Below are positions 8,737 through 53,331 of a stretch of DNA of 64,000 bases, in pieces. Source of the stretch: Candidatus Latescibacterota bacterium (GTDB lineage Bacteria; Latescibacterota; UBA2968); assembly GCA_965205975.1 (NCBI GenBank), contig OZ242195.1, positions 4,352,001-4,416,000 on the forward strand. Reading direction: 5' to 3'. Numbering within the stretch: position 1 is the first letter of the stretch; each line of letters begins with the position of its first letter. The notes under the pieces are model-generated. The model worked only from the letters and a program-made list of their open reading frames with translations, was not told the origin of the DNA and did not search any database. A program made the translations under genes and the position numbers.

Positions 8737-8753
8737 TGCAATATCTATGCCAA
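8737..8753 (-). promoter_or_regulatory. Sigma54 (-24/-12) promoter facing the Trx-UGSC-msrB-adhesin genes
   Basis: Minus strand TTGGCATAGATATTGCA; exact GG-N10-GC spacing. Confidence 0.75.
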
Positions 8754-8848
8754 TGTGAGGCTGTTCGAGCGATCACAATCACAAATAATTGTTTTTATTT
8801 AATGTATAATGACAAAAAAAGAAAAAATCAGGCAGAGGAGTTTTTACT

Positions 8849-8870
8849 ATTAGACGATATATCGTCTAAT
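8849..8870. promoter_or_regulatory. Perfect 22-bp palindrome, putative enhancer (UAS)
   Basis: ATTAGACGATATATCGTCTAAT, about 100 bp upstream of the sigma54 site. Confidence 0.65.
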
Positions 8871-9147
8871 TTTTATGACCAATGGCCGATATACAGACCA
8901 ATGGTCGAAATAAAAACTATGAGAGGGGATATAGGGGATATACAAGATATTGTGGGGAAATACAGTATTGGACTGCTAATGTAGAACATGTCGCGTTTTT
9001 AGGGAAGAAAAAAATACAGGTTTTACAAGTATTTAAAAAAAGTGGTCATATCTATAATAACCCGATGCAATACATTCTTGACAAGTGCGCGATATATCAT
9101 TACTGAAAATATCATTGGATTCTTGAACGCCACCTTATCACAATCTT

Positions 9148-11124
9148 ATGGCACTTGCACAATCACAACCCGAACCTGCGCGGGCGCGGCATATTACCGT
9201 CCGATCTATTGTCCTTGGTGCGGCTACTGCGGCGTTGCTCAATATTTACAGCGATTACACGGGCATGATTTTGGGGTCTGCTTCGCTGGTTAAGTCGCAG
9301 TTGTCCATGGCTATGCTTTTGCCCTTTGTCGCGTGGCTCGTGATCAATCTCATTCTAAAGCTGGCCTGGCCGCGCATGGCTTTGCGGGGCACAGAGCTTC
9401 TGGTTATTTACAGCATGTCGTGGATTGTGGGCACGGTTTCGGCAAGTGGGTGGACGACCTATTGGGGCGGTATTGTCAGTACGCCGTTTTATTATGCTTC
9501 TCCCGAAAATCGATGGGAAGAGGTCCTTTTTGATATTTTGCCGTGGTGGTGTTTGCCCCAGGCAACGCCCGAAATTATTCGCACGTATTACGAGGGGCTT
9601 CCCGATGGCGCGAGTATTCCCTGGCGCGGTTGGCTGGCTTCGCTGCACTGGTGGTTCGCCGTATCTATTGCCCTTGTTGTTGCCGGGTTATGTCTCGCGG
9701 TCATTTTTCAAAAGCAGTGGGAGGAGAACGAGCGTCTGACTTTTCCTCTCGCGGCTTTTCCGATTGCACTGACCGAGGGCTTTGACGAACCGGGCCGCGT
9801 TATACCCGGTATTTTTCGGAATAAACTCTTTTGGGTCGGCTTTTTTATTGTTTTTGGTGTTTTTGCCTGGAATATCCTCGGTTATTTTGCCATTAGCTTG
9901 CCCCGAATTGGCATTTACGACGGTTATCTGACCAAGGAGGTGCCTATTGCGCGCAATTTTCCATCGTTTTATTTGCGTATTTTGCCACCTGTTTTAGGGC
10001 TTACTTATATGTGTAACCTGGATATCCTCTTCAGTTTTTGGGCTTTTCGTCTTATCGCCATTGTCAAAGAAGGGGTGATGGCTCGCACGGGTTTTAATGT
10101 GGGCCTTTCCGGGCAACAGGCCGAGGCGGCCGAGATTCTGATTTTAGAATCTCATGGTGCTTTCATCTTTCTGGCAGTGTGGGCGGTATGGGTCGCGCGA
10201 GGTCATTTGCGAGATGTTCTTCGCGCAGCGATGACGGGAGGGGCAGATGACGGTCTGGTATCTTATCGCCTGGCATTGCTCGGTTTTATTGCGGCGACTA
10301 TTTTTGTTTTTGGGTGGTTCGTCGCGGTGGGTTTGTCTCCTTTTCTCGCGCTCTTCCACCTCTTACTGCTTTATGCAGCGTATTTTACTGTGGCAAAATA
10401 CACTGCGGCCAGCGGTTTTTCTTATCTTTTTCCGGTTGGGGGCAAGGGGGGGCAAATTGTCGAGATTTTTACGGGGACCGCAACGCTTACGCAACAAAAT
10501 ACCGTTGCTCTGGGCGTGATCAATTCGAGTGCATTTTTTGGCAATTCGCGCATTCCCGCATGGCCCGCTCTGCCTCATCATCTCAAACTTTTGGGGAATG
10601 ACGTCCGCCGTCGCTGGGTTTTCTGGATCGTTTTGTTGGCTTTTGCCTCGGGGTTTTTTGGATCGTGTCTTTTTATTGTGCATTTGGGATATAATTACGC
10701 GGGTCAAAACCTGGGGCTGTCGGGTTTTAGCGGGTCCAATATTCGCACGTACGATCGCATGGTTTCCGCTATTGTTGGCGCGGATAAAACGGTTTTTGAT
10801 CCGGGTAAAATAGCGGTCTGGATTTTTGGGTTTGGGCAAGCGGGTCTGCTTATGCTCCTTCGCAATCGCGTCCCGTGGTGGCCCTTGCACCCCCTGGGTC
10901 TGGCTTTTCAGAAGATGTCGGGTTCTCGGGTCTATGCCTTCAGTATTTTTCTGACCTGGGCGTCCAAGCTCATTATTCTGCGCATTGGTGGCATTTCGAT
11001 CTATCGGCGCTGTATCCCTTTGTTCTTTGGTCTTGTGATCGGTTATGTCGTCGGTGTGGGGGTGTCTTCTGTTGTCGATTTTACCTTTTTCCCGGAAGAA
11101 GGGCATTCTGTTCACGGGTGGTAG
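9148..11124 (+). CDS. Polytopic membrane protein, DUF6785/DUF6784-like (putative transporter)
   Basis: Many TM segments; QWEENERLTFPLA and WWPLHPLG motifs. Confidence 0.75.
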   Translation: MALAQSQPEPARARHITVRSIVLGAATAALLNIYSDYTGMILGSASLVKSQLSMAMLLPFVAWLVINLILKLAWPRMALRGTELLVIYSMSWIVGTVSASGWTTYWGGIVSTPFYYASPENRWEEVLFDILPWWCLPQATPEIIRTYYEGLPDGASIPWRGWLASLHWWFAVSIALVVAGLCLAVIFQKQWEENERLTFPLAAFPIALTEGFDEPGRVIPGIFRNKLFWVGFFIVFGVFAWNILGYFAISLPRIGIYDGYLTKEVPIARNFPSFYLRILPPVLGLTYMCNLDILFSFWAFRLIAIVKEGVMARTGFNVGLSGQQAEAAEILILESHGAFIFLAVWAVWVARGHLRDVLRAAMTGGADDGLVSYRLALLGFIAATIFVFGWFVAVGLSPFLALFHLLLLYAAYFTVAKYTAASGFSYLFPVGGKGGQIVEIFTGTATLTQQNTVALGVINSSAFFGNSRIPAWPALPHHLKLLGNDVRRRWVFWIVLLAFASGFFGSCLFIVHLGYNYAGQNLGLSGFSGSNIRTYDRMVSAIVGADKTVFDPGKIAVWIFGFGQAGLLMLLRNRVPWWPLHPLGLAFQKMSGSRVYAFSIFLTWASKLIILRIGGISIYRRCIPLFFGLVIGYVVGVGVSSVVDFTFFPEEGHSVHGW

Positions 11125-11129
11125 CTCTT

Positions 11130-11741
11130 ATGTCCAATCGCTATCCCATTCCCGCCGAGACCTGCCGCGTAGAGGATGAAATTAAGCGCAGTCGCTTTAT
11201 TACGACGTTGGCGCATACATCGGTGCGAGAAGAAGCTCGTGTGTTTATCGATCAAATTCGCGCCGAGTTTCCCGATGCTTCACACAATTGCTGGGCGTTC
11301 CTGATCGGGCCACCAGGTACAACGGGTAATGTGGGGATGAGCGATGATGGAGAGCCGCATGGTACGGCTGGTCGTCCTATGCTGACCGTGCTCACGCATT
11401 CGGGGCTTGGCGATGTGGTAGTAGTTGTGACGCGCTATTTTGGTGGGACAAAGTTGGGGAAAGGCGGGCTTGTGCGGGCTTATTCAGGCGGGGTGCAACA
11501 CGCGCTTGAGAAGGTTCAATGCACAGAGCGCGTGACGCGGATCGCTGTTTTGGCGACGATTGGCTATGCGGCTTATGAATCTTTCAAGCGGTTGCTTCCG
11601 GATTTTGAAGTGCGTGTTGTCGCTGAAGATTTTGGGACCGATATTACATGCGAACTGGCTGTGCCTGAAGAACAGGTTGGACCTTTCAAACAGGCGGTGG
11701 GGAATCTGACCAGGGGACAGGCGCAGGTTGAGGAGGTGTGA
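11130..11741 (+). CDS. yigZ: YigZ/IMPACT family protein
   Basis: IKRSRF, ASHNCWAF, SDDGEPHGTAG, VTRYFGGTKLGKGGLVRAY; start trimmed to MSNRY. Confidence 0.93.
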   Translation: MSNRYPIPAETCRVEDEIKRSRFITTLAHTSVREEARVFIDQIRAEFPDASHNCWAFLIGPPGTTGNVGMSDDGEPHGTAGRPMLTVLTHSGLGDVVVVVTRYFGGTKLGKGGLVRAYSGGVQHALEKVQCTERVTRIAVLATIGYAAYESFKRLLPDFEVRVVAEDFGTDITCELAVPEEQVGPFKQAVGNLTRGQAQVEEV

Positions 11742-11749
11742 GGCGCGCG

Positions 11750-12919
11750 TTATGCCTTATCGCGGATCAAGTTTGGCAAGCGCGTGTCGGGATTGATGCC
11801 GATGGCGTGTTTGCCGTTTAAGAGTGCGATCAGGTCTGCGCCTAAAAATTCGTACCGCCAACCTGTGTGCAACGGATTATCCGTCGCATTTTTTTTGCGG
11901 GAAATGAATTCTTTGACTTCTGATCGCGATGCGACCATTGGGATGTCGATGCCTTCTGATAGACACCGTCCGCGCAAGAAAGCCATGGCGAGATCGAGAC
12001 GTGCATCGTCAAAGGGATCGGGTCGCACAGGTGGGGATATGGGCGGGCAATTTTTTTCGTCGATTGCCAATCCGCGCTGTACAGCGTTGAGGAGGCTATT
12101 GCTGTGCTGATTTATGGTTGATCTCGGGATACCCCGCAATCGTTTTAGCGACTGAGATGATTGCGGCTTGCGCCGGGCGATTTGCACGATGGCGTTATCG
12201 CTCATGATCCAGGTTTTGGGGCGGTCTGTCTGTCGGGCCTTTTGTTCGCGCCAGGTGGCCAGTTCGCGCACGATGGCCATATTGCGTCTGGAGAGTCGTC
12301 CTGTGCCTTTTACGCGCGTATATTGTTCTTCGGGCGCGCGGTCGTCGTACAATTTGGCAATATCGTACTGACGGAGCTCTTCTGCCAACCAGTTTTCTCG
12401 ACCTCGTCGATGAATGTCGGTCAGGATATGTTCGCGCAGGGCAGGCAAATATCGCACATCATCCAGGGCATAGGCGAGTTGTTTATCCGATAATGGTCGC
12501 CTCAACCAGTTTGTGCGCGTTTCTGTTTTGGGTAATTGTATGTTGAGACACAGGCGCAATAAATTGCCCAGCGATAGGTTTGAACTCAAATCCATGAAGC
12601 CCGCTGCACAACGCGTGTCAAATATATTGCAGGGGAGAGCATCTGTTATCCGTCTCAAAATCCAGAGGTCTTGCTGTGCATCGTGCAAAATTTTCACAGT
12701 GTGAGGGTTTGATAATAAGGTACCCAGAGGCGATAGATCCGATAATGTGACGGTATCTATCAGGTGGCAATCATTTTCTGAAAGTCCCACCTGTATAATG
12801 CCCAGGCGCGGATAATAGGTTTGTTCCCAGATAAATTCTGTATCAATGCCCACACAGGGCGCGTTTAGAGCGCGGTTGACAAGGGTTTCGAGTTCGTTGG
12901 GTGTATTGATTAGTGGCAT
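11750..12919 (-). CDS. rnd: Ribonuclease D
   Basis: DTEF..YYP, HDAQQD, FDT, WLRRPLS..QLAYALDDV, HRDC domain. Confidence 0.93.
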   Translation of the reverse strand: MPLINTPNELETLVNRALNAPCVGIDTEFIWEQTYYPRLGIIQVGLSENDCHLIDTVTLSDLSPLGTLLSNPHTVKILHDAQQDLWILRRITDALPCNIFDTRCAAGFMDLSSNLSLGNLLRLCLNIQLPKTETRTNWLRRPLSDKQLAYALDDVRYLPALREHILTDIHRRGRENWLAEELRQYDIAKLYDDRAPEEQYTRVKGTGRLSRRNMAIVRELATWREQKARQTDRPKTWIMSDNAIVQIARRKPQSSQSLKRLRGIPRSTINQHSNSLLNAVQRGLAIDEKNCPPISPPVRPDPFDDARLDLAMAFLRGRCLSEGIDIPMVASRSEVKEFISRKKNATDNPLHTGWRYEFLGADLIALLNGKHAIGINPDTRLPNLIRDKA

Positions 12920-13018
12920 GAAAAGACCGTTTTGGTTAATGTGTTGAGATCAAGGTATCACATCACGCGCTTAATATCAAGCACAGAACCTGCACCTTAT
13001 TATTATAAAGGAGTCTGT

Positions 13019-13930
13019 ATGAACCATCGACAACTTGGCAAAGACGGTGCCGACATCCCGGTTATAGGCCTGGGTGCCTGGCCCATTGGCGGCGGTATGG
13101 GCAATATGGACGATAGGGATAGTATTGATACTGTGCGTACTGCTATTGACAGCGGTATTACCCTGCTCGATACTGCACAGGCATATCGCACCAGCGAGGC
13201 CACACTGGGCAGAGCGCTCAAAGATGGCTATCGCGAGCGGTGCTTTCTGGCGACGAAAGTCAGTCGTCAATATTCTCGCGGGGATATTGAATACGCCATT
13301 GAAAATAGCCTGCGAAATCTCGATGTCGATTACGTAGATTTGTATCAAATCCACAGTTGGAACCCTCAATATCCCATTGAAGAGAGTATGGAAACTATGG
13401 CCCGGCTGCAAGAGCAGGGCAAAACGCGCTTTATCGGGGTTTCCAACTTCAATGCGGCACAGATGCAACAGGCGTACGATATTGCCCCATTTCATTCAAA
13501 TCAGCCGCGCTACAATATGTTTGATCGGAATATTGAAGCCGAAGATCTGGATTTTTGCAAACAAACGGGTATTGGCATCCTCGCCCATAGTCCCCTGGGG
13601 AAAGGTTTGCTTACGGGCAAATATGCGTCCGGTCACGTCTTTTCCGAAGACGACGAGCGCGCGAATTCACCTCGCTTTCAAGGCGATCTCTTCGCCCGTT
13701 ATCTCGCAGTGGCAGACCAGTTAAAATCCGTTGCTGCCGATAAAAATATCACGATGGTGCAACTCGCTATTGCCTGGCTTCTTCGCCGCGAGGAAGTAAC
13801 ATGTGTGCTCGTTGGGGCAAAAAATTCCGATCAGGCCAAAGAACACGTCGGCGCGGCAGATGTCGCGTTTTCGGATGATGAATTGGAACGTATTGAAAAA
13901 ATTTTGCAAGATACGCCGAGTGGCTTTTAG
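13019..13930 (+). CDS. Aldo/keto reductase
   Basis: IGLGAW, DTAQAY, DLYQIH, IGVSNF, SPLGKGLL; RBS AAGGAG before MNHRQ. Confidence 0.93.
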   Translation: MNHRQLGKDGADIPVIGLGAWPIGGGMGNMDDRDSIDTVRTAIDSGITLLDTAQAYRTSEATLGRALKDGYRERCFLATKVSRQYSRGDIEYAIENSLRNLDVDYVDLYQIHSWNPQYPIEESMETMARLQEQGKTRFIGVSNFNAAQMQQAYDIAPFHSNQPRYNMFDRNIEAEDLDFCKQTGIGILAHSPLGKGLLTGKYASGHVFSEDDERANSPRFQGDLFARYLAVADQLKSVAADKNITMVQLAIAWLLRREEVTCVLVGAKNSDQAKEHVGAADVAFSDDELERIEKILQDTPSGF

Positions 13931-13940
13931 GAGGTTTATC

Positions 13941-14765
13941 ATGATTATTGATCCCCATCTCCATGTGTGGAGCGATGACGAGGAAACCTATCCCTACGGT
14001 CCCAGCCAACCCCATGAGGCGGGTTCGGTCGAGCTTTTGTTTGAGACGATGGCGGACGCAGGGGTGGATAAAGCGGTTATTGTTCAGCCGATCCACTATC
14101 TCTTTGATAATCGATATGTGGCCGATTGTCTCAAACGGTATCCCGATAAGCTGGCAGCACAGGCTCTTGTGGATCCCACATCACCCGATGCAGCGGATGA
14201 GTTGGAGCGTTTGCACAGGGAAGAGGGGTTTGGCGGGATGCGCATTCATTTGTCGCGTTATGGAGACCCTAAAGGTCTGGCTGCACCTGACAAGGATCCG
14301 CTGTGGGCGCGTGCCCGAGATCTGGGCCTGTGTTTCAATCTGTTTGGTGGGGCTGAGGATCATGCGCCTGTTGAACCCATTATTGCCCGGTTTCCCGAGG
14401 TCAATGTTGTGGTTGATCACATTGCCGGTATTCCCGTGGATGAGCCGGATCCCAAGCCCTTGCTGACCAATTTGCTCAATTGGGGACAATATCCCAATGT
14501 GTATGTCAAGATTTCCAATGTGGGACAGCGATCCAATATGCCCTATCCACACCGAGATACGCACGATATGATCAAGCGCATTTACGATGTTTACGGTCCG
14601 GAGCGTTTGATGTGGGGTACGGATTTTCCCCATGTGTTCAGGAGTTGTGGGTACAGAGGGTCTCTGGATTTGATACGCGACCACATGTTTTTTAATGATA
14701 ACGATCTCGAATGGATTCTGTGTAAGACCATTCTCAAACTGTGGTCTTTTGATGAGCGCATATGA
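13941..14765 (+). CDS. Amidohydrolase_2 family protein (sugar-lactonase-like)
   Basis: IDPHLHVW, VVDH, RLMWGTDFP. Confidence 0.88.
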   Translation: MIIDPHLHVWSDDEETYPYGPSQPHEAGSVELLFETMADAGVDKAVIVQPIHYLFDNRYVADCLKRYPDKLAAQALVDPTSPDAADELERLHREEGFGGMRIHLSRYGDPKGLAAPDKDPLWARARDLGLCFNLFGGAEDHAPVEPIIARFPEVNVVVDHIAGIPVDEPDPKPLLTNLLNWGQYPNVYVKISNVGQRSNMPYPHRDTHDMIKRIYDVYGPERLMWGTDFPHVFRSCGYRGSLDLIRDHMFFNDNDLEWILCKTILKLWSFDERI

Positions 14766-14845
14766 GAATCTGATGGGATTTTTCGTAAAATAAAAGAGCC
14801 ATAACACCTGAATGGTATGGCTCTTTATTGTATTGTGATTAATCG

Positions 14846-15676
14846 CTATCCCAGTGCTTCGAGATATTCTTCGCCTTTGTGTTCGCGCAGCCAACTTTTG
14901 AGGGGGACATCGGCTTCTGTGGGTTGCCACCACCCTTTGACGTCTATGCCATCGCCGAGTAGCTGGCGGCGGATGGGGTCGCATTTGCCGAGTATATTTT
15001 CGGGCATGAGGTTGTAATCCAGCCCCCGCAGCCAGCGATAACTGTAGCCAAAGAATAGCACGCGGCGCGTGACGTCGGATGTGTTAATTCCCCGCCGGTG
15101 CCACATTCTGCGGTCAAAGAGTACGGCTGTTCCCGCCTTAACACATACGGGCATCACATCGCATTCTTCGGGTTTTGTGTCCAGTTTGTGACTGCGCGGC
15201 ACTATTTGCATTGCGCCGTGTTCTGGGGTGTCAACATCGCTTAGCCAGTAACTGATTTTTAGCGATAAGCGCGGGTGGGGACGCTCCATCTCGGGTACGG
15301 GTCGCCCGCCGTCTTGATGCCAGCCGCCCGGGTTAATCTCGCGTTTCTTTTGTTCGGGGGGATATACGATTAGATGGGAAATATAAAGCTGGATATTCCA
15401 CCCCAAAATATCCCATAATAAGGGAAATGTTTTGGGGTTATCGAGTAATTCCAGAAAGACATCGTCTTCCACAATGGTTCGGAATTTACCCAGAAGAGCA
15501 TTTGGTTTCAGTCCTTGTACTTCGCGCTCCTGCGCTTCTACCCGATCGACAGCGTCATTCAATCGCGCGAGCAGGTCGGGCGATAGAGCGTCTTCGACAA
15601 TCAAATACCCCTCGTCATTGAATTGCCTGAGTTGCGCTTCTGTAGCGCAGTGTTGCAACCATTTTTTCGCGTTCAT
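14846..15676 (-). CDS. Phytanoyl-CoA dioxygenase (PhyH) family Fe/2OG oxygenase
   Basis: GYLIVED, WHQD, PRSH, distal WH..R. Confidence 0.9.
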   Translation of the reverse strand: MNAKKWLQHCATEAQLRQFNDEGYLIVEDALSPDLLARLNDAVDRVEAQEREVQGLKPNALLGKFRTIVEDDVFLELLDNPKTFPLLWDILGWNIQLYISHLIVYPPEQKKREINPGGWHQDGGRPVPEMERPHPRLSLKISYWLSDVDTPEHGAMQIVPRSHKLDTKPEECDVMPVCVKAGTAVLFDRRMWHRRGINTSDVTRRVLFFGYSYRWLRGLDYNLMPENILGKCDPIRRQLLGDGIDVKGWWQPTEADVPLKSWLREHKGEEYLEALG

Positions 15677-15687
15677 GGTGTTTTCCT

Positions 15688-34848: not shown

Positions 34849-35133
34849 TTAGTGATAGTCCACGATTTCCACGTTCGTTGGTCCTGAGTGCTCTCGTCGC
34901 CACTCGAAACAGATCCGCCATTGGTCGTTGATGCGGATGCTGTACTGGCCTCTTCGATTCCCTTTCAAGGCTTCAAAATGGTTGCCCGGTAATGCAGCCA
35001 GATCCCTGATTGAAGAGGCAGCCTCCAGGCGGTCAAGCTTCAGCCGTGCGGCGCGTTCGATGCCGGAGAAGGCCCTGACCCACTTTCCGGAAGCGAAATC
35101 CCTGGTTCGCTTGTCGCGATAGCTAACGATCAT
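34849..35133 (-). CDS. higB: HigB plasmid-maintenance killer toxin
   Basis: PGN.FEALKG.R.GQYSIRINDQWRICF..VEIVDYH. Confidence 0.93.
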   Translation of the reverse strand: MIVSYRDKRTRDFASGKWVRAFSGIERAARLKLDRLEAASSIRDLAALPGNHFEALKGNRRGQYSIRINDQWRICFEWRREHSGPTNVEIVDYH

Positions 35134-35989
35134 TCCCTATCCGAATTAAAGCCGTCTCTGCCCTGGTGACAATCTGCATGTATTCCCTATAGTCTGGGTC
35201 GGATCTGAGTTGATGGTGTTGAGGCTTGTTTGCATGACAGCCGATACACAAGGCAAGAAAATTTTTTTCGTTGCTGTCGTTCTTTTGACCATTAATGTGG
35301 TGGACGTGCAGAAATTTTCTCTCATCTTTAAGATTAACGCCGCACTCTTCACATTTCCAGTTCCGCTTTTCTTTGTATCTGTAAGAAATTTGCTCCCAGT
35401 TCGGCGGATAAGTATTTACTGGGGCTGTAATGTCAGTATGCGTTGGCTCTCTCGTTATTTGAGAATCATATTTTTCAAAAAACGCTCTCAAGTTGAAATG
35501 ATCCCTGATTGCATTCCGTCCCGAGTATCCGTGCCTACGGTAACCGTTGTAATTTAGTCGGTCTAAGCAATTCTTACAGACATATAACCTACACTCGATT
35601 TCTTGCTTTTTATCACGAAGAAAATTGACAATAAATTTTCCATCCCTTCGGTATGTGACCACGTATCTGTCGTACCTATTTAATTTTCTCATTTCCTGTA
35701 GAGCAACACAGTCGGCAACATGAAATTTAGGTAACTCTTCGCGAGTAGCATCACTTGGCACATATTGGTCTCGGATATAAACGACGAGCTTTTGTCCTCC
35801 GTATTCAAGTGTGCCATCATCAGCATATTCAATTTTATCAGGTGTGATCTCTATCCCTGTTGTAACTAAAACTTTATCGATATTTATAGAATTCCACTCT
35901 TCTCCTGAATTCCATGAGATCAGTTCAGTGCCCATATTTTGTCGAAGTTGATTCAATCCAACATGTTTTGAAAAATCTGGCAGGTTCAT
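35123..35989 (-). CDS. zorE: HNH endonuclease, ZorE-like
   Basis: CEECG..LHVHHING.K.D..N..LC..CH; third gene after zorA and zorB. Confidence 0.75.
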   Translation of the reverse strand: MNLPDFSKHVGLNQLRQNMGTELISWNSGEEWNSINIDKVLVTTGIEITPDKIEYADDGTLEYGGQKLVVYIRDQYVPSDATREELPKFHVADCVALQEMRKLNRYDRYVVTYRRDGKFIVNFLRDKKQEIECRLYVCKNCLDRLNYNGYRRHGYSGRNAIRDHFNLRAFFEKYDSQITREPTHTDITAPVNTYPPNWEQISYRYKEKRNWKCEECGVNLKDERKFLHVHHINGQKNDSNEKNFLALCIGCHANKPQHHQLRSDPDYREYMQIVTRAETALIRIGNDR

Positions 35990-36714
35990 TCTTTTTCATC
36001 TCGCTTTATAATTTCAACAATCCGTTTCTCAGCATTCGTCCGCACTCTAAACTCCACTCGTCTTGATTCTTCTTTATTTTCTGTGCCATCAGGATAAGAA
36101 ATCACCTTGCTTGAAGATAACCCATTGGCGGTCAAGTACTGTTTCAGCCAATACCTGATCTCCTGATTTCCGCTGAGTTCGGGGAGAAGTACATATTGAA
36201 GTACACGTCTTGTTCTGTCCTGTGATAGCTCCATGTTACGGATATAGGCTTCTTCAGGACTCTCACCTGCTTGCCACTCACTTGAGGTGTGTCCTTCAAT
36301 CCGAATTTCTGCGATATCGTTGATATAATCAGATTGCCTCAAAACTTTAATATAACGGGGAAAAAAGTCCTTCAAGATGTTTTTGAAGGCGGGACGAACC
36401 TCTGCTTCCCCTTGTGCAAATAACACTTCAGGCTCTTTGAACCGGACAGAGAGAGTTTGTCTATCCAAGACAGCGTTCCATTTATTCAGGTCTTTTTCAA
36501 ACTCTTTCTCAAGGTCGGCATATAGGTCGGACTGCAATTTCTCATATGTGACAGCAATTTTCTCAATTTTTTCTTTTTCTGCTTGAACATGTAGCATGTA
36601 ACTGATGGCTATAAATAGGAAGATTACCATCAATCCAGCCATCATATCAGAAATAGAGATCCAATGTTCTTCCGTATCTTGCTCTCTATTTGTCAGAATT
36701 TCTTCGCTCATCAT
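35986..36714 (-). CDS. zorB: ZorB (MotB/OmpA-like)
   Basis: WISISDMMAGLM TM with conserved Asp; IRIEGHTS, NMELSQDR, SRRVEFR. Confidence 0.85.
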   Translation of the reverse strand: MMSEEILTNREQDTEEHWISISDMMAGLMVIFLFIAISYMLHVQAEKEKIEKIAVTYEKLQSDLYADLEKEFEKDLNKWNAVLDRQTLSVRFKEPEVLFAQGEAEVRPAFKNILKDFFPRYIKVLRQSDYINDIAEIRIEGHTSSEWQAGESPEEAYIRNMELSQDRTRRVLQYVLLPELSGNQEIRYWLKQYLTANGLSSSKVISYPDGTENKEESRRVEFRVRTNAEKRIVEIIKRDEKE

Positions 36715-36720
36715 CCTGTC

Positions 36721-38031
36721 CTATGGGCGTCGTGAGTAACGACCTGTTTGTTGTAAACCATCTGCTATTCGTACTACGTTGCGAAGCTGATCCGTTAGGG
36801 GCTGGTAGTCATCAACAAATCGTCTTGATAGACTGGCAAGTTGACTTCCCAATGATTCAATGGATTTTGTGAGTTCTTCCTGAAGTGCTCTATCCAGGAG
36901 TTGGATTTGCTGGGTCACATTGGCTGTGCTTTCGCGGAAAATGCGCTCCGTTTCGGTATTGAGTCGCCTATTTGTGTCTGTCACCATCGTCTCAAGTTGT
37001 TGGGCTTGATTGGTCAAGGCTTCCCTTTGTCTTTCCATAGAAACCTGCGAATTATCAATGTTTTCCGCTACCACTTGTGTAAAGTCATCGGTTAATTGGT
37101 TCAGCCGATTCTCAATGATTGGAAATGCGTTACTCGCATTATCAGCTAACGCACTAAACGCCTCGAGACGATCATTCATCAGTTGTATCTGCTGTTGTAT
37201 TGCTTGAAGTATGGGATCAAGTTTTTCCGCGTTTGAAACAATGACGTCACTTCTTTCAGCAATACTCTCCAGCGATTGCCGCGATTTTTCGATGCTTTCT
37301 GCCGCAATCCGAAATTCCACAGCCAGTTCGTCCATCTGTTGACGGTATTGTTCTTGCCAGTCATTGATTCTTCCGACCGCTTCATTGAGTTGCTTAAAGT
37401 TATCTCCAAATTGTTCATTGATTTTTGTGTTAAAGTCCCGCATGACGGATTCAAGTGCTTCAATTAGTGCCTTTGTATTGTTATCAGCCATCTGAGTCGC
37501 AAATTCTTTGAAGGCCTGAAGTAAATCGTCTTGCTTGTCTGAGAAGGTGGTTCTCAACTTCTGCAACTGAGTCAAAACGGTGCTTTCACCATCTCCCGTC
37601 AATGCTTTTTCAATAGCGCGGAGGGTTTCTCTGGTTTCGTCTCCTTCTGCTTGATGTATTTTGTGAATTTCCTTTAGGATATTTGCAAGGTCATCAATGG
37701 TTGCGCCTGTATAGGTCTCCTCTGAAGCTGCTTGTTTTTTCAGCTTGTTTAGAGATGATAATTTAAGACAAATCGAGCCTGCAATTCCTATAATGGAAGT
37801 TAAAAAGGCAAATTTCAGGCCTTCCAACAACAGGGGAACACTGGCTTCAATGTTCTGTGTGTCAAAATTTAAAAGTCCCCAGGCAATACCAGCAAATGTT
37901 CCAAGTACCCCGATGACGGTCACAATTGAGGCAATAGTATTGACTTGTTGATGCCGAATTTTCCAGAACCACAAGACTGCCACTAACATAAAAATCGCAA
38001 AAAATGCCCAAACCCCCCATAACATGTCCAT
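36721..38031 (-). CDS. zorA: ZorA (MotA/ExbB-like with long helical tail)
   Basis: GVLGTFAGI..GL, GLKFAFLTSIIG; DFNTKINEQFGDNFKQLN coiled-coil tail. Confidence 0.85.
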   Translation of the reverse strand: MDMLWGVWAFFAIFMLVAVLWFWKIRHQQVNTIASIVTVIGVLGTFAGIAWGLLNFDTQNIEASVPLLLEGLKFAFLTSIIGIAGSICLKLSSLNKLKKQAASEETYTGATIDDLANILKEIHKIHQAEGDETRETLRAIEKALTGDGESTVLTQLQKLRTTFSDKQDDLLQAFKEFATQMADNNTKALIEALESVMRDFNTKINEQFGDNFKQLNEAVGRINDWQEQYRQQMDELAVEFRIAAESIEKSRQSLESIAERSDVIVSNAEKLDPILQAIQQQIQLMNDRLEAFSALADNASNAFPIIENRLNQLTDDFTQVVAENIDNSQVSMERQREALTNQAQQLETMVTDTNRRLNTETERIFRESTANVTQQIQLLDRALQEELTKSIESLGSQLASLSRRFVDDYQPLTDQLRNVVRIADGLQQTGRYSRRP

Positions 38032-45134: not shown

Positions 45135-45155
45135 AAAAACGCTCCTGAAAAATGG

Positions 45156-46145: not shown

Positions 46146-46178
46146 CTGATTTTTCCTTATTTAAACATGGATCATGGC

Positions 46179-46204: not shown

Positions 46205-46299
46205 GTGTGTCATCTTACGTAATGTCTATTATAGCAGGTCATGGGGTAGAATGCAACAAAACCGAATCTGTCTTTTCACCTCTCGCGAAGTGGTGTTGA

Positions 46300-46338
46300 A
46301 AAATAAAAACCCACTCGTGTACGAGTGGGAATAAAAAA
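46300..46338 (-). terminator. Rho-independent terminator after the toxin gene
   Basis: CCCACTCGT-AC-ACGAGTGGG followed by a T-run on the minus strand. Confidence 0.7.
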
Positions 46339-46363
46339 TTGCCAGCGGGCCTGTAGGCATTTC

Positions 46364-46621
46364 TTACGGTTTCCTATAAATCTCATGAGTCCCTACTCGA
46401 CGCAGACGGTAGGTATCACCCACGATCTTGAATGTGAATCTGTAACTTCCAGTGACGCGGGCCTCCCAGATATCGGCTTGCCCTCGCATCTTCTGGGTCT
46501 GGAGAGAACCGTGATGTGGATTAGTAAAGAGAAGCGAGAGTTGTTTGTCAACGCGCTCCTGGATGTTCCGTGGCAGTCGCGCATAGTCGCGGTCAAATGA
46601 TTTCTCAGTGACGATTTTCAT
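46364..46621 (-). CDS. RelE/ParE-like toxin
   Basis: NPHHGSLQTQKM..IWEARV..YRFTF..LRRVGTH. Confidence 0.85.
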   Translation of the reverse strand: MKIVTEKSFDRDYARLPRNIQERVDKQLSLLFTNPHHGSLQTQKMRGQADIWEARVTGSYRFTFKIVGDTYRLRRVGTHEIYRKP

Positions 46622-47046
46622 GCACGCTGTTTATGGAGGTGGACAAGGAGACCCTCTGTCGTTTCAAATGCACTGGAAGATCGGCCCTCCCGCTCGTCTC
46701 GCTCAGCTTCCCGCTCGCCTTTCTGCCAGGACTCCAGCCACCAGTACTTTTGTTCTGGATCGATAAGACCTGCTTTAGCAGCCGCGTTGGCCTCTGCCTC
46801 GGTTAATCCTTTGGAATTAAGCATGTCCTCGTTGATGGTCTTGATTTTGTCTTTTGCCCGCGCGAGAATCCGTTGTTCTCTTTTTGAAAGCTCTGGAAGA
46901 CCAGATACCATCTGCTGCGGTATGAGGACGACTTTTCCGTTCTCTTCAATTACCTCAATTACATCACCAACTTTGAGGCCGAGTTTTTCAAATACTGGCT
47001 TGGGAATAGTGATCCGGTGGCTGGAGGTAATTTTCGAATGTGGCAT
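46618..47046 (-). CDS. AbrB/MazE-type antitoxin
   Basis: ITIPK..LGLKVGD; C-terminal QKYWWLESWQKGEREAE. Confidence 0.82.
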   Translation of the reverse strand: MPHSKITSSHRITIPKPVFEKLGLKVGDVIEVIEENGKVVLIPQQMVSGLPELSKREQRILARAKDKIKTINEDMLNSKGLTEAEANAAAKAGLIDPEQKYWWLESWQKGEREAERDEREGRSSSAFETTEGLLVHLHKQRA

Positions 47047-47182
47047 TCCGCGTCTCCTGTTTTGTCATTGCAAGATGATCCTGAACATAGAACAAAATTA
47101 AAAAGCCTCGCAAAAAAGTCAATGGCCTACTGACCATTTCACAGTAAATTGGTCTGGACAGCGACCAGTTGTACAACGTTCC

Positions 47183-48118
47183 TCACGTTACACTTCTCAA
47201 TTTTTCGTACAGGTCCTCTTCCAGCAAGGCGGCACCTGCCCGAGCATTGTCTATGACTTGTTCGACTTTAGTTGCGCCCGGGATGACGACGGGATTGGAT
47301 TTGTGGGAAATGACATACCGGAGAGCGGTTTCCACGAGTTTTGAGTCATCTCCAATAGCTTCTTTGATCGCTTCCAGCTTGTCCAGCATGTCTTCGTATT
47401 CTTCGCGGTCGGATTGTCCCGGGTTCCAATCGTCGCGCACGGTGTCGCCAAATACGCTTTCGCGGTTGTATTTGCCGGATAAGACGCCCTTGGCCAATGG
47501 GCCTCGCACGAGGATGCCCAGGTTTTTTTCTGTGCAGTAATCGAGAAATCCCGCTTCTGGTGCGCGATTGATCAGTGAGTAATCCACTTCCACTACGGCG
47601 CAGACGCCGTTTGATAGTTCATAGAAGTTTTTCAGGACACTGAGGCTGTTGGTCGAAATGCCATAGGTGCGGACAAAACCCTCTTCGCACAGGGTATTAA
47701 ATCCTTCGATGTAAATGGATGGGTCTTCAATGCTACCTTCATGGCATAACATGACGTCGATTCGGTCGGTTTGCATGCGGCCCAGGCAGGCGTGTCCGCA
47801 CAGGCGAATGGCATCAGTGCCCGTTTTTGGCACAGGCGCCCCGGTGCGACTTCCCCAGTTGCCGATTTTGCTCACGATGATCAGTTTGTCGCGCATTGAT
47901 GGGGTCAGGGTTTTGCCGATGCGCAATTCGCTCATGCCGTTGGGGATGCCATAAGATTCGGCGGCGTCCAGCAGGTTCATGCCATTGTCAATCGCGGCTA
48001 ATATAATATCGGTTGCCTCCTGATCGCTCAACTCGCCCCACTGGTTGCCCAGGTTCCAGGTTCCCAATCCTACGACGGAAACACGCCATCCGGTTTTGCC
48101 AAATGTTCGATAGATCAT
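47183..48118 (-). CDS. Aldo/keto reductase
   Basis: MIYRTFGKTG..GLGTW, DAAESYG, PLAKGVL; start trimmed. Confidence 0.9.
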   Translation of the reverse strand: MIYRTFGKTGWRVSVVGLGTWNLGNQWGELSDQEATDIILAAIDNGMNLLDAAESYGIPNGMSELRIGKTLTPSMRDKLIIVSKIGNWGSRTGAPVPKTGTDAIRLCGHACLGRMQTDRIDVMLCHEGSIEDPSIYIEGFNTLCEEGFVRTYGISTNSLSVLKNFYELSNGVCAVVEVDYSLINRAPEAGFLDYCTEKNLGILVRGPLAKGVLSGKYNRESVFGDTVRDDWNPGQSDREEYEDMLDKLEAIKEAIGDDSKLVETALRYVISHKSNPVVIPGATKVEQVIDNARAGAALLEEDLYEKLRSVT

Positions 48119-49254
48119 TTTTGTCTCCTGTTTTTGTTTTTCCAAATGGGATAATCTTTTTCCAAAATTCGCGCGGGCCAGTATCCGTACCATGCATATC
48201 CGGTTCGCCTTTCCAGGGCGACCTGTGATAGAGAATAGACTTTGTTGCCGTCCCGGTTGGCCATGAAGGGGCGGTTTGTACCTATTTCGTGAAAACGCGC
48301 CCACAAAGGCGGGGCGTCCGGGTCTTTGACAACGATCAGGTCTGTGGTCGCGGTGTGATTTCTGAAGCGCGTGGGAGATATTTCGATGCGTTTTAGTCGA
48401 ATGCCTTCTATTTTTGCGTTGTGAAACCATTGTACCGCACTTTCAATTGCGTCTATTATTTCGGGGCTTGGATTTTCAATACGCATTAAAAAATGCACGA
48501 TCTTCGCCGTTTGTCCCGCTGTAATAGACGGCAATTCATAAGTGCGCGCTTTTACGGGTTCATAAGTTATATGGTCGTGTTGTTGACACCATCCCGTTTT
48601 TTTGCCTTTGACGACGATCTGGCATTTCAGGGTTACATCAATTGCCCGGTGCAGTGCGGCTCTGGCTTTGGCGTGTAGTTCATTGCTTGCCCATGCGAAA
48701 TGGGGCTCGCGGTCTGCGATATCTTTCAACAGGGTCATTATGCCAATCATGACACCGTCATTATAAGTAATGGCATCGACATCCCAACCGCGCCATCCAC
48801 CTGTGGGGTGTTGCTCGCGGAATATATAGTCCAGACCCCCTTCGACTGCATTGCGATATTGCGCCAGATTAGTGGCAACGTACACCTTTGCCAGATAGTC
48901 GATCTGTGAGAATGTGTTGTGGTTGTCAAATGTGCTGACCATCCGGCGTTCGCCTTTGATCGCTCTGACTGTATCGGGGGCGATCTGCGCCTGCCAATCT
49001 ACATTGTTGGGCCAACCACCATCTGCGTTCTGGTAAGCGAGCATGTTTTCGGCAATATGGACAATTTGCGAGGGATCGTACATCGGGTCGTTGCGGTCGC
49101 GTCCATATCGCTTGCGCCAGTGGCTCATCCCATCTCGCAATGGGTGAAGGTCAATGGCTTGATATGTCTGAGCTTTGGCTGTTTCAATCCTGTCGTTGGC
49201 TTCACAAAGCCCAATAGCAAAAAAATAAAAGATTAAAAGTGCGGAAATTTTCAC
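48115..49254 (-). CDS. pelA: Secreted pectate lyase, PL10/PelA family
   Basis: Signal peptide; QNADGGWP, STFDN, ITYND, WCQQH, ARTYE, LWARF.E, ERRTGYAW. Confidence 0.9.
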   Translation of the reverse strand: MKISALLIFYFFAIGLCEANDRIETAKAQTYQAIDLHPLRDGMSHWRKRYGRDRNDPMYDPSQIVHIAENMLAYQNADGGWPNNVDWQAQIAPDTVRAIKGERRMVSTFDNHNTFSQIDYLAKVYVATNLAQYRNAVEGGLDYIFREQHPTGGWRGWDVDAITYNDGVMIGIMTLLKDIADREPHFAWASNELHAKARAALHRAIDVTLKCQIVVKGKKTGWCQQHDHITYEPVKARTYELPSITAGQTAKIVHFLMRIENPSPEIIDAIESAVQWFHNAKIEGIRLKRIEISPTRFRNHTATTDLIVVKDPDAPPLWARFHEIGTNRPFMANRDGNKVYSLSQVALERRTGYAWYGYWPARILEKDYPIWKNKNRRQK

Positions 49255-49255
49255 C

Positions 49256-49663
49256 TCATTCTTCCTCTCGATAGCCCAATACCACGAGCAGACACGACCC
49301 GTCGCCGATAACTGAGAGTCCCAATTCTTCTCCCGTTGCTATCGCCTTTGGACTCTCAGCACCGGGTTGCATCCACACGTGTTGAATGCCTGCCTCGTGA
49401 GCTTGAGGGAGTATGGTTTCTGTCACGGGCGGTGGTGTGATGATTGAGATGCCGTAAACGGGTTCGGGGAGTGAATCTATATCGGGGAAACAGGGTTGTC
49501 CCTCGATTTCTGTCTCTTTGGGATTGATGGGATAAGCGGTCAATCCGTGTTGTAGATAACACCGCAGGATCTTGTTACCGTATTTTGCCCGGTCTTGCGA
49601 TGCGCCGACAACGCCGAATGCTTTTCCTTTGAGAAATTCGTCAATTCGTTCTGGGATTGTCAT
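49256..49663 (-). CDS. CoA-binding protein (YccU-like)
   Basis: VVGAS, YPINP, VWMQPG. Confidence 0.88.
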   Translation of the reverse strand: MTIPERIDEFLKGKAFGVVGASQDRAKYGNKILRCYLQHGLTAYPINPKETEIEGQPCFPDIDSLPEPVYGISIITPPPVTETILPQAHEAGIQHVWMQPGAESPKAIATGEELGLSVIGDGSCLLVVLGYREEE

Positions 49664-49931
49664 GCAAGCCTCTTTGATTTAATGGTAGAGATAAAGAAGC
49701 GCGATTGTCAACGGTCATGTTTAAGATATTCGAAATACAGCAGAAAAGCCACGTTGAAAATAAGGTGTTGTCTTAAATTTTCTCTTTTTAACTTTTTTTA
49801 ACTTCTTTGAAATCCGCATGAAATATCTCATCTGTAACATATAAGGCGCAAATGAAAAACTGAAAACGCGTTGAAATGGCTGGTGCTACACAGGCTGATG
49901 CTTAAGCAGATTCACGGGGTTAGATCTTGAT

Positions 49932-52900
49932 ATGATCAATTTACTTAATCGAAAAGGTATCTGGCGGACTTATTCTATGGCCGATGGCCTGTCCGGAATG
50001 CGCGTCGAACACATTGCAGAAGACAGCGAGGGTTGTATCTGGTTCGCCACATGGGATAATGGCGTCAGTCGCTTCGATGGGAACGAATTCCAGAATTTTA
50101 CCAAACAGGATGGTCTTATTGATGATTGTATTATTTTATTGCACAAGACAGTCAGAATCGCTTATGGTTTGGTACCGCAAATGGCGTCTGCTGGTACGAC
50201 GGAGCGGATTTCCACCATTTGAAGGGCGATGGCATTGCAGACCGAGATGTGCGGTGCATCTACGAAGATAATGAGGGCCGTGTATGGTGCTGTGGTACCC
50301 GTACTCTGGGGTATTGCGATGGCACTGCTTTCCACGACATGATTCCGCACTACCTTCAGCACTACAAGCGGCCTCCTTCTCCTAAGTGGCGTCAATGTTG
50401 GGGTATCACTCAGGATTCGCAAGATCACCTGTGGTTTGGCTTCAACTACCTCATCCGCTTTGATGGTGAATCCTTCCATCGCTATGAGAAGAAAGACGGT
50501 TTTCCCCAGGATGGGACCGCATATATGGTAGATACGGACCATACCGGCAAGGTGTGGATTGGTCGGTACGGAAATCGAGATGAACTCTGGTGCTATGCCG
50601 ATGGCACCTTCGAGTCTGTTCAGGTAGATTTAGGTGGTCCACTGCGTAAAATACAGTGTGACCGTGAAGGGCGGATGTGGTTTAGCACTTCGGAAGGGGG
50701 ATTGTATCAGGACAGTGATGGGTTTAGCAGGTTTACCGTTGCTGATGGGCTACCCCATCCCGCAGTCAAATCCGTGCTCCAGGATCGCGATCATCAGTTC
50801 TGGTTTGCCACCTGGGGCGGCGTCGGTCTTTACGATGCACATAGTATCAGCGTTTTTGACCTCGGTAAGACTCTTCCCAAAGACAAAGAGCCGGTCGAGA
50901 TCTCGCAGATCGTGCAAGACCGGCAGGGTGATATATGGGTCGGGTGTGTGTCACCCATTCTCACCTCCCTGAACAAAAGCGTCGCCCGCTTTGATGGCGA
51001 GCACTTTGCTTTTGTAGGCGCCGAGCAAGGCTTTGATATCGACAATTGCCTCTCTATGCACGAGGATCACGAGGGGTATCTGTGGTTTGGCGGTCTCAAC
51101 GGCCTGTTCCGCTACGATGGACAAGCGTTCAAAAAGATGAAAATAGCTGCGGGTTCAGGCGACAGGAGTATCAGTGCAATTGCCCAGGATTCGCAAGGTC
51201 AATTCCTTTTTGGCTATTGGGAAGAGGGCATCTATAAAACCGAATTGAAAAAAAAAGAGCTTTCGGGCAGTCCATTAAAGCTCATTTACCGGCGGGGTGA
51301 GGCATTCCAAACCATTTTTGTAGAGGAAAAAAAGAAAGATGTCTTAGACCGCATTGGCACTGTGGTTGTCGGACGTAACAGCGGGATCTATTTTCATCTA
51401 TCTGAAAAAAAAATTTCAGATACCTACAAGGGCTTCGCGCGCTGGCATCCCGAAGATGGACTTAAATTTTATGGCATTGAAGATGGGCTAATTGACGACA
51501 GGATCACAGATCTTATAGAAGACCACCTGGAGAACCTGTGGATCGCTACTCTGGGTGGTCTTTGTCGTTTTGATGGCAGCACCTTCCAGACCTTCACAAC
51601 GGAAGACGGCTTGCCGAGCAACCGTATCCGTTGCTTGTTCGAGGATCGACAAGGGCATCTCTGGCTCGGCACAGATGGGGGTGTGGCTCACTTTGATGGT
51701 CAGCTTTTTCAGACCATCAATTCGCCGCACATAGGACCGGTTTCTCAGATACTTGAAGATCGCGATGGCAACTTCTGGTTTGGTACTATGCTGGGTTCTA
51801 TCATACGCTACCGGCCGCGACGAGTTCCACCCCGGATTCGTCTGCTCCAGGTGATTGCTGATCGGGTCCATGAGAACTCGGAGGAAGTCATCGTATCTAA
51901 GACAGACCAGAATGTGATTTTTGAGTACAGGGGCCTGAGTTTTTCCACCCATCCCAGCGACATGCTCTATATCTACCGCCTGAAGGGATACGACTCTGAC
52001 TGGCAACCAGCGACTCAAAAAATGCGGACCTATTACCGGGACCTGCCGCCGGGAGACTACACGTTTCAGATCAGAGCTATTGATCGCGACCTCAATTACT
52101 CAGAGATAGCACAGGTACAACTCCTGGTAGAGCCAGATCCGCGTATTGAAGCTCTGACTACTCCAATTAGCGGTCTTAGAGATAACGAGTTTATCGGTCA
52201 GAGCAAGGCTTTGCAACAGTTTCAAACCAAACTCATAGAGGTGGCATCCACTGATATGACGGTGCTATTTCTGGGTGAGACGGGTGTGGGCAAGGGACTG
52301 GTTGCACGGGTGCTACACGAACACAGTGCCCATAGCGATGGGCCTTTTATACAGGTCAACTGCGGTGCATTGCCTGAAACGCTGATAGATAGTGAACTTT
52401 TTGGTCACGAAAAAGGGGCTTTTACCAGCGCAGTGTCTCGCAGGCTGGGCAAGATAGAACTGGCCAGGGGTGGCACACTCTTTTTAGATGAAGTCGGAGA
52501 TATGACTCTGGCAACACAGGCCAGAATGTTGCGCTTGCTGGAAGAGGGCACTTTTGAGCGCGTTGGGGGGAGCGAGATACTGACGGCACAGACGCGGATT
52601 GTGGCAGCGACCAATCGCGACTTGAAGGATATGGTCAAGGAAGGTGAGTTTCGCGAGGACCTCTATTATCGCATCTATGTCTTTCCGCTCTATTTGCCAC
52701 CTTTGCGCGAGCGCAAGGAGGATATACCGCACCTATCTGAGTTTTTCAAGACTCGCATAGCGAAGCATTTGGGCAAGCAAATTGACCCTTTGACACCAGA
52801 GGTTATCGCGGTGCTACAAACCTGCGATTGGTCTGGGAATGTGCGGGAGTTGAAGCATATAATGCAGCGTGCTGTAATTGCGTGTCGCGGATCTCAAATT

Positions 52901-53137
52901 GAAGTGGGTGATCTGGGACTGTATGATTCTCATATCGCTCTTGACCTTGAGATTAATACCATAGATCAAGCCCGCGAAGTCGTGCCTTTGGAGGATTTTG
53001 AACGCCGCTATATCCTCAAAGTGCTCAAAATCACCGATTGGCGGGTAAGCGGTCCTCGGGGCGCAGCAGTTCTGCTGAGATTACCTCCTTCTACTCTGTA
53101 TAGCAAAATCAAAAAATTGGGGATCAAACGTCCCTAA
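49932..53137 (+). pseudogene. Beta-propeller (Reg_prop/Y_Y_Y) sensor fused to a sigma54 AAA+ activator and Fis HTH; frameshifted near 50130
   Basis: ORF 49932 (DGL..IAEDSEGCIWFAT..DGLIDDC) continues in another frame as YFIAQDSQNRLWFGT. It later contains YRLKGYD..W..LPPGDYTF, GETGVGK, ESELFGH-like DSELFGHEKGAFTSA, LFLDEV, FREDLYYR and the HTH. Confidence 0.82.
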
Positions 53138-53160
53138 ATAGTGTATTGATCATTTTTGAT

Positions 53161-53250
53161 AATAGCGATATATCGCTATTTTTATATAACCTGTTGCAAT
53201 AAAAAAATTTATGCATCATTTCGGTTGGTTTTTTATGATATATCGTGAAA
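53161..53250. promoter_or_regulatory. Two palindromic putative enhancer sites
   Basis: AATAGCGATATATCGCTATT (53161-53180, perfect) and TTTTATGATATATCGTGAAA (53231-53250, imperfect). Confidence 0.65.
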
Positions 53251-53286
53251 ATTATGAAATTCAAAGAAATTCAAAATATTCAATAA

Positions 53287-53299
53287 AATCAATATGTTA
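53287..53299 (+). promoter_or_regulatory. IHF-binding consensus
   Basis: AATCAATATGTTA fits WATCAANNNNTTR and lies between the UAS and the sigma54 promoter. Confidence 0.55.
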
Positions 53300-53314
53300 T
53301 ATAAATAATTAGAG

Positions 53315-53331
53315 TTGGCACGGATATTGCT
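53315..53331 (+). promoter_or_regulatory. Sigma54 promoter
   Basis: TTGGCACGGATATTGCT, near-perfect TGGCAC-N5-TTGC. Confidence 0.88.

Follow-up and report, generated by a model that had tools for sequence, protein, structure and literature searches.

The DNA analyzed here is a 64,000-nt stretch (the window) of the genome of Candidatus Latescibacterota bacterium (GCA_965205975.1, contig OZ242195.1, positions 4,352,001-4,416,000, forward strand), a single 5.56 Mb contig with 51% GC in which rpoN was found. It contains two sigma-54 promoters with palindromic upstream sites. The left one precedes an operon encoding a thioredoxin-like protein (Trx), a UGSC-family selenoprotein, the methionine-R-sulfoxide reductase MsrB and a giant adhesin-like protein, and the right one stands between the gene of a sigma-54 activator and that of a predicted secreted haloperoxidase-family protein. 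An earlier interpretation based on the window sequence (the sequence-only reading) had proposed that this activator induces an oxidant generator, its self-protection system and an adhesin together. The features concerned are listed below; enhancer palindromes, all putative, are called CG-type when their form is CG-ATATAT-CG and CC-type when it is CC-ATATAT-GG.

2..6178, minus strand: 5' part of the gene for a 2790-aa predicted secreted Calx-beta/cadherin-like repeat protein, adhesin-like (Pfam), extending past the window start
6212..6619, minus strand: MsrB, methionine-R-sulfoxide reductase (TIGR00357, above cut-off)
6632..7141, minus strand: UGSC-family selenoprotein with a conserved in-frame UGA at 6869-6871 (GLAD-U-GSCTTC)
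7138..8553, minus strand: 471-aa protein with a weak thioredoxin-like CxxC domain and an unknown UGSC-partner domain (domain search)
8738..8753, minus strand: left sigma-54 -24/-12 box, TTGGCATAGATATTGC, kept in 10 congeners
8782..8794, minus strand: IHF-like site between the left enhancer and box, with one consensus mismatch, in a region conserved in the alignment
8849..8870: perfect 22-bp CG-type enhancer palindrome at -114 (matrix score 22.5)
8885..8898: second, weaker CG-type site at -146 (score 11.5)
8978..9008, minus strand: likely ancestral trx-UGSC-msrB promoter, upstream of the sigma-54 cassette
49932..53137, plus strand: frameshifted gene of the sigma-54 activator, with double beta-propeller, Y_Y_Y, AAA+ (GAFTSA) and helix-turn-helix (HTH; PPSTLYSKIKK, Ser type)
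53161..53180: 20-bp CG-type enhancer palindrome at -152, sole survivor of a tandem pair
53231..53250: weak accessory site at -82 (score 6.8), identical in G003 and G008
53287..53299, plus strand: IHF-like site of the right promoter
53315..53330, plus strand: right sigma-54 -24/-12 box, TTGGCACGGATATTGC, identical in four relatives and degenerate in G002
53347..53446, plus strand: exact 50-bp tandem duplication in the right leader, in this strain only
53448..56225, plus strand: predicted secreted vanadium haloperoxidase-family protein with fn3 and a dockerin-like tail, 925 aa from its likely start (Pfam DUF6851/VCPO_2nd)

The two IHF-like sites (8782..8794 and 53287..53299) were recognized by comparison with the IHF consensus.

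The two boxes (8738-8753, minus; 53315-53330, plus) and the two long palindromes, one perfect over 22 bp (8849-8870) and the other over 20 bp (53161-53180), lie where the sequence-only reading had placed them. Both boxes show the GG (-24) and GC (-12) of sigma-54 promoters in intergenic DNA, are kept in relatives and have a conserved palindromic site ~80-200 bp upstream. Their likeness, previously read as a sign of co-regulation, is real but amounts to the plain sigma-54 consensus; with 53 intergenic sigma-54 boxes in the genome, and the right box occurring letter for letter four times, we rejected box similarity as evidence of co-regulation. A genome-wide search for the palindrome gave a divided answer: the bare 10-mer core CGATATATCG occurs at chance frequency (13 genomic copies against 11-15 expected, three of the 13 extending to perfect palindromes of at least 18 bp), but scoring with a site matrix trained on other genomes, whose training set included two orthologues of the right promoter and none of the left, singled out both window promoters (p ~0.001 against 886 other upstream regions). 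The site class is conserved in relatives, but perfect palindromes are particular to this genome, and the argument built on perfection was rejected as strain-specific. The left site is imperfect in all 10 relatives having it, scores at least 15 at -111 to -114 in 9 of 11 genomes and reaches its highest score here; the right promoter of G003, G007, G008 and G015 carries two tandem cores 18 bp apart, one of which has been lost here. Two weaker copies had also been proposed. The one at 53231-53250 exists, but it is weak and identical in only two of four relatives; the one at 9089-9100 has to be discarded, because relatives differ in its CG and genomes lacking the sigma-54 cassette still have it, and it is part of a conserved TTGACA..ATATATCATTAC element of the divergent gene. 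Both window promoters look like genuine sigma-54 promoters that share one class of upstream site. Downstream of them, the 50-bp leader duplication on the right is absent from five relatives and skipped by a contig of run X6, and the 170-nt leader before trx (8554-8726, minus) is kept in seven cassette genomes and short or absent in four; Rfam gave no match for this leader or for any other part of the window.

The activator, whose stop at 53137 is indeed 23 bp before the right palindrome, is also confirmed as the only sigma-54 activator of the window, among 50 open reading frames (ORFs) scanned. Pfam recognizes Reg_prop, Y_Y_Y, sigma-54 AAA+ and HTH_8 (Fis-type) domains in it and no histidine kinase, receiver or AraC domain. 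Its closest full-length relatives are titled Ca. Latescibacterota. The gene starts at 49932 and lacks one base near 50127-50130 in comparison with its intact G015 orthologue (1064 aa), so that the true start frame ends after 96 aa. In run X1, contigs with the extra base account for 455 of a depth of 666 at the frameshift, and the remaining 210 equals the depth of the window-identical contigs (195-223); the break is therefore probably real and, by this subtraction, probably common to the contigs of the own strain, run X1 being possibly the source sample. The box and palindromes are still present in G003, G008 and a contig of run X6, all of which have lost the gene by deletion. This genome has 23 AAA+ activator matches, four of them close paralogues of the window activator: two intact Ser-type copies (1063 and 1065 aa), one Gly-type copy and a 765-aa copy with a GAFASA loop, which is the other one to share the Tyr-Ser helix of the window activator. 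A single dedicated activator is hard to reconcile with a frameshifted window copy, with deletion in two genomes that keep the promoter, with the frequency of Ser-type paralogues having the same site, and with four more promoters of this genome sharing that site.

These proteins belong to a large family. A search with the HTH yielded 122 matches, spread over 27 of the 41 genomes at 0-11 per congener; 114 of these loci were analyzed, the other eight (short fragments, one contig-end piece and one duplicate) being dropped. The propeller part has matches in 42 of 132 genomes of the class. The layout is stereotyped, with an adjacent sigma-54 box, downstream or divergent, at 81 of the 114 loci, and with the site at -112 to -117 in 37 of these 81 promoters, the left palindrome of the window occupying the commonest position (-114). 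Instead of the canonical GAFTGA, the window activator has a GAFTSA loop, which is the most frequent form in the family (GAFTSA 61, GAFTGA 25, GAFASA 9, GAFTNA 3, GAFTTA 3, other 4 and not seen 9, n=114) and is also found in 97 of the 120 top database homologues. In NorR, according to PMC2941729, Asp, Asn, Gln, Ser, Cys and Met at this loop position give active proteins and other changes do not; because Ser is among the active residues, GAFTSA probably behaves like a functional loop, and the common natural variants of the family fall within the active NorR set. Among the 66 full-length copies, Walker A is found in 65 and Walker B in all, an arginine-finger motif is present, and none has a membrane or signal segment (no hydrophobic segment above 1.58). 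The sensor matches the ectodomains of Bacteroides hybrid sensors 3V9F and 4A2L both in sequence (E 2e-42) and in fold (E 4e-31, searched with an AlphaFold model of pTM 0.44 in which the propeller is well modeled), and it varies most at residues 301-500 (61% identity against 74-77%).

Three side groups of the family deserve mention. Ten Ser-type paralogues have GAFASA or GAFANA loops, lacking the Thr (L100, L101, L105, L107, L109, L110, L115, L116, L125 and G000:C1:2543337-2545634), and only one of the ten has an adjacent sigma-54 box, against 75 of 94 Thr-bearing copies; they are probably related to each other and possibly act as sigma-54-blind partners or anti-activators. The L279-L289 subgroup, which belongs to another family of the class, no longer has any GAFTGA loop and retains coded palindromes upstream, with no sigma-54 box in the DNA fetched; its members have likely been repurposed as sigma-54-independent regulators. 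At L093, L102 and L105, a second propeller activator stands under the promoter that follows the first, an arrangement that suggests cascades.

The residue that follows STLY in the recognition helix tracks the site: Ser and Thr go with CG-ATATAT-CG, Gly and Asn with CC-ATATAT-GG. With sites picked by a score blind to the base in question, this code is followed at 62 of the 75 promoters considered (of 81, leaving out four with other residues and two without a site): Ser, 23 CG, no CC and one tie; Thr, four CG (CGTTATAACG); Asn, 11 CC; Gly, 24 CC, six CG and six ties. Out of sample, in 20 loci of another family scored with the matrices of the first set, 17 of 19 follow it (Ser 7/7 CG, Asn 3/3 CC, Gly seven CC, one CG and one without a site; a His copy has CC), a box being detectable within the fetched DNA at three of the 20 loci. 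On quick trees the residue class changes 13 times, seven of them forced by starred branches, and of six independent pairs 4.8 go the same way and none the opposite way (p 0.06); divergent promoters taken alone leave one pair. Several Ser copies sit within Gly or Asn clades (L286, L108 and L099/L103/L111) and have CG or half-CG sites 3 kb from the HTH, including L286 of the out-of-sample set, from a Gly clade, whose site has switched to CG. One case lies outside Latescibacterota, a Ser-type activator of Ca. Contendobacter with a CG core (TGCGATATATCGCG) at -99, obtained from a distant FhlA-like set in which the helix was found in 14 of 80 loci and a box in four. The coded residue lies in the last helix of the model (1049-1058) and aligns, weakly (E 0.12), with a Lys of the NtrC-family HTH 4L5E, in which we presume that this position contacts a base. 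The correlation between residue and site is observed; from it and this alignment we infer the base contact, and the helix residue likely sets the base beside the conserved C.

Scored against the same upstream regions, six of the 53 boxes of this genome are CG-type at p<0.01 and two are CC-type. Besides the two window promoters, the six comprise one ahead of a LacI regulator and three ahead of proteins of 5846, 3826 and 3607 aa; a further candidate, preceding a 1681-aa protein, is weak (p 0.07). The giant targets are Calx-beta/cadherin/fn3 repeat proteins, and four of the six promoters stand ahead of operons that encode giant Calx-beta adhesins. Of the 53 targets of family promoters that could be read across genomes, 39 have a hydrophobic N-terminus, against 24% of 3124 ORFs, a contrast tempered by the crudeness of this signal-peptide measure and by the 28 of 81 promoters without a readable target. 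Three further activators are also among the targets.

Twenty-one genomes (congeners) were compared for the cassette, adhesin, haloperoxidase and msrB, and 20 for trx-UGSC. The redox genes are near-universal, msrB being present in 21/21 genomes and trx-UGSC in 18/20 congeners. The sigma-54 cassette stands before trx in 11 genomes, in all of which the adhesin gene, inserted between msrB and the next ancestral gene, begins ~45 bp or less after msrB. Two others, G010 and G020, have a cassette remnant without box between msrB and the adhesin gene; there, a piece of a divergent DUF6785 gene accompanies the remnant after msrB (L072:3788-4304 and L079:3575-3890), pointing to tandem integration and later deletion. 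The assignment of the adhesin to the left promoter has thus held up: the adhesin occurs in 13 of 13 genomes with cassette or remnant against none of the eight others, a count that takes G020 as present and in which the draft assemblies G012 and G014 are among the eight. On an rpoB tree the cassette-adhesin pair changes five times (forced). The core trx-UGSC alleles do not split by cassette and form no single cassette-less haplotype (low support). Since cassette-less promoter alleles are shared, recombination links some of the cassette events. All 11 full-cassette genomes have a Ser-type activator copy, and all six genomes without one lack the cassette. In eight congeners trx-UGSC-msrB is kept under other promoters, and the putative ancestral promoter at 8978..9008 resembles, by eye, the sequence before trx in the cassette-less G002, G012, G014 and G009. 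Since the left module and the giant adhesin are retained or lost as a pair, the redox genes are likely passengers, flanked by a promoter and an adhesin gene that were both added.

Regarding the proteins of this operon, the selenoprotein assignment is backed by SelA and tRNA-Sec in the genome and by a UGA kept at 16 of 16 UGSC loci. A hairpin predicted after the UGA, a possible bacterial SECIS, is near-invariant at these 16 loci, and its energy is not better than that of shuffles (z 0.17). The motif U-G-S-C-T-T-C (6632-7141, minus) resembles the UxxCxxC of glycine/proline reductase selenoproteins, and the operon might encode a reductase instead of serving as protection against oxidants. The thioredoxin domain with its CxxC is missing in 6 of 18 congeners, three of them cassette-bearing. 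We found no solved structure for UGSC, and the Atlas holds only automatic names for the 471-aa protein. According to PMC2398784, the function of UGSC proteins is unknown and their fold is probably thioredoxin-like.

The haloperoxidase has a signal-like N-terminus and the segments KSWYDYVRP, PFAGYVSGHS and SRLWGGIH, which agree with the three vanadate motifs (K-x6-RP, SGH and SR-x5-H). Its matches in the PDB are weak (9L8X, 9PTR and 4CIT, E 3e-9 to 2e-6), and we regard it as a predicted, candidate bacterial haloperoxidase. It occurs in 6 of 21 genomes; six of the 11 full-cassette genomes have no match, and the five genomes with a palindrome-bearing haloperoxidase promoter all carry the left cassette. 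G002 has a degenerate haloperoxidase box, no site at either promoter, no left cassette and no Ser-type activator. Such a distribution is better explained by a common dependence on Ser-type activators than by a dedicated programme. Right after the gene (56475-63999, plus) follow a urea ABC transporter (UrtA above cut-off), a porin and urease gamma and beta.

Our preferred explanation, which we consider probable, is that both window promoters are copies of a stereotyped sigma-54 module whose palindromes likely serve as enhancer sites of Ser-type activators, which would probably act in trans to turn on secreted and surface proteins. An intracellular ligand would be sensed by the double propeller, and dimers of the HTH would occupy the tandem palindromes; with the DNA between enhancer and box bent by IHF, the AAA+ ring would use its GAFTSA loop to open the sigma-54 complex, as the conserved parts and the NorR precedent suggest. 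The residue after STLY would set the base next to the conserved C (CG for Ser/Thr, CC for Gly/Asn), and this helix code would split the family into few regulons, each common to several paralogues. The left module and the adhesin gene would have been added around trx-UGSC-msrB, and the right module would serve the haloperoxidase. We infer cytoplasmic sensing, binding, IHF looping, activation in trans and the passenger status of the redox genes from these comparisons; a family-level enhancer shared by secreted proteins, with the redox genes as passengers, is likely, and co-induction of the left operon and the haloperoxidase is plausible only as part of the wider CG-type set.

Several observations weigh against this explanation. 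The tree-aware test of the code remains below significance, and an earlier version with four pairs gave p 0.25; the sites of one Gly clade are CG or hybrid (L083, L085, L093, L094 and L102), and L277 contradicts the rule. At downstream promoters the HTH lies ~200 bp from the site, and both could have been exchanged jointly. In the structural model, Y_Y_Y and parts of the AAA+ domain are poorly predicted. The intact Ser-type paralogues of this genome have Phe-Ser helices with more degenerate neighboring sites, and its Tyr-Ser copies are broken or GAFASA. G012 and G014 carry Ser-type copies without a cassette, and the cassette-less promoter alleles common to them and G002 mean that the five changes on the rpoB tree are not fully independent.

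In a tentative alternative, compatible with the family explanation and to our mind rather doubtful, both promoters have been orphaned or are only weakly cross-activated in this strain, their cognate Tyr-Ser activators being broken. The 96-aa window activator and the 765-aa GAFASA copy agree with it, as do the loss of one of the two tandem sites, the duplicated leader, and the decay of the left site in G013 and G005, two genomes in which the Ser-type copies are partial or have GAFASA/GAFANA loops. However, the left site here scores best of 11, the genome has two intact Ser-type paralogues, G003 and G008 retain the box and sites despite activator deletion, and an internal restart in the broken gene is possible.

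The programme put forward by the sequence-only reading, in which the adjacent activator specifically co-induces the haloperoxidase, Trx-Sec-MsrB self-protection and the adhesin for chemical defense, appears unlikely. MsrB repairs oxidized Met, the two promoters share a site class, the Tyr-Ser helix of the window activator elsewhere adjoins unbroken CGATATATCG cores, and the five palindrome-bearing haloperoxidase genomes with the cassette, together with G002 without both sites, speak for a connection. Against it stand the frameshift here and the deletions in G003 and G008, the six of 11 cassette genomes without haloperoxidase, redox genes that run cassette-free in eight congeners, the loss of the Trx CxxC in 6/18, the remnant of G010 and G020 that precedes only the adhesin gene, the unknown function of UGSC (PMC2398784) and the four other promoters with the same site. 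A pairing of generator and self-protection is not supported by these counts, nor is a single haloperoxidase/repair regulon, of which co-occurring members dependent on one activator would be expected. That the palindromes are intrinsic terminators or chance hairpins is very improbable: both are flagged as terminator-like with a T run on the plus strand, the right one follows the activator stop and the core is at chance frequency, but they have just three G-C pairs, match counts equal those of shuffles, the tandem copies of G008 share the same direct-orientation change that breaks the hairpin, the imperfect left sites of relatives keep their C..G anchors at a fixed distance from the box, and sites also occur at divergent promoters and track the helix residue.

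The propeller activators resemble one-component sigma-54 activators such as FhlA, NorR and NifA in their AAA+ domain, Fis-type HTH, palindromic upstream sites and gene beside the target; matches to NF011958, NF003451 and TIGR01817 are all below cut-off. Their sensor, by contrast, is a 700-aa double propeller plus Y_Y_Y rather than GAF, PAS or a receiver, GAFTSA is normal, and up to 11 paralogues (~70% identity) share sites according to the helix residue. The same Reg_prop double propeller plus Y_Y_Y is found in the sensors BT3049, BT4663 and BT4673 of Bacteroides (3V9F, 4A2L and 3VA6), which sit in the periplasm and pass their signal to an AraC domain by way of a membrane kinase, whereas the family has no signal or membrane segment and fuses the sensor to a sigma-54 ATPase. 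The haloperoxidase shares the three vanadate motifs and weak sequence similarity with bacterial vanadium enzymes (9L8X, 9PTR, 4CIT and NapH3, 8CXL) but is distant from them and has a signal peptide, fn3 and a dockerin-like tail. The selenoprotein is like other UGSC proteins (PF24696, NF041046) in its UGSC motif, conserved in-frame UGA, Sec machinery and partner domain, and differs from the family at large in that msrB lies downstream of it and in that 11 genomes have a sigma-54 module added ahead of it. Cross-regulation as such is already known, since in Desulfovibrio, according to PMC4641369, activators adjoin their targets and two of them share one motif. In the literature covered, which did not include subscription journals, we found no description of the propeller-activator family or its site, databases name its proteins only generically, and a passage search in the main text of a paper on sponge Latescibacterota genomes (PMC12993501) gave no mention of sigma factors, cadherin, Calx, seleno or adhesins.

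If the preferred explanation holds, the family offers a testable natural specificity code for Fis-type HTHs (a single residue paired with a single base of each half-site, with several switches), a direct fusion of a sigma-54 ATPase to a sensor fold familiar from the periplasm, and GAFTSA as the normal form of the GAFTGA loop. For uncultured sponge symbionts it opens a route to sequence-based prediction of the activators in control of adhesins and secreted enzymes, among them a candidate bacterial haloperoxidase. A far more speculative picture, which we would not expect to hold in full, is that in sponge-type Latescibacterota a glycan-sensor fold has become a one-component switchboard of the cytoplasm: dozens of propeller activators would read imported ligands derived from the host, a one-residue code would insulate a small number of regulons from each other, and a portable module would be shuffled before adhesins and secreted enzymes, so that the CG-type regulon would deploy giant adhesins, a surface haloperoxidase and, where captured, selenoprotein-MsrB in host colonization.

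Other observations concern the remainder of the genome and window. A tandem AAGTGTTCATTTTCGGACAC-type motif is common to another group of sigma-54 promoters (G000:C1: 2009626, 2785392, 2850638, 2954319, 4084758, 4107630 and 4821005), several of which lie before ABC-permease-like genes. A 20-bp palindrome, GGGCGAGGCATGCCTCGCCC, has 33 genome-wide copies and is REP-like. Between the two promoters, a Zorya type II-like trio (ZorA2-like, OmpA/ZorB-like and ZorE-like, all below NCBIfam cut-offs) occupies 35123-38031 on the minus strand.

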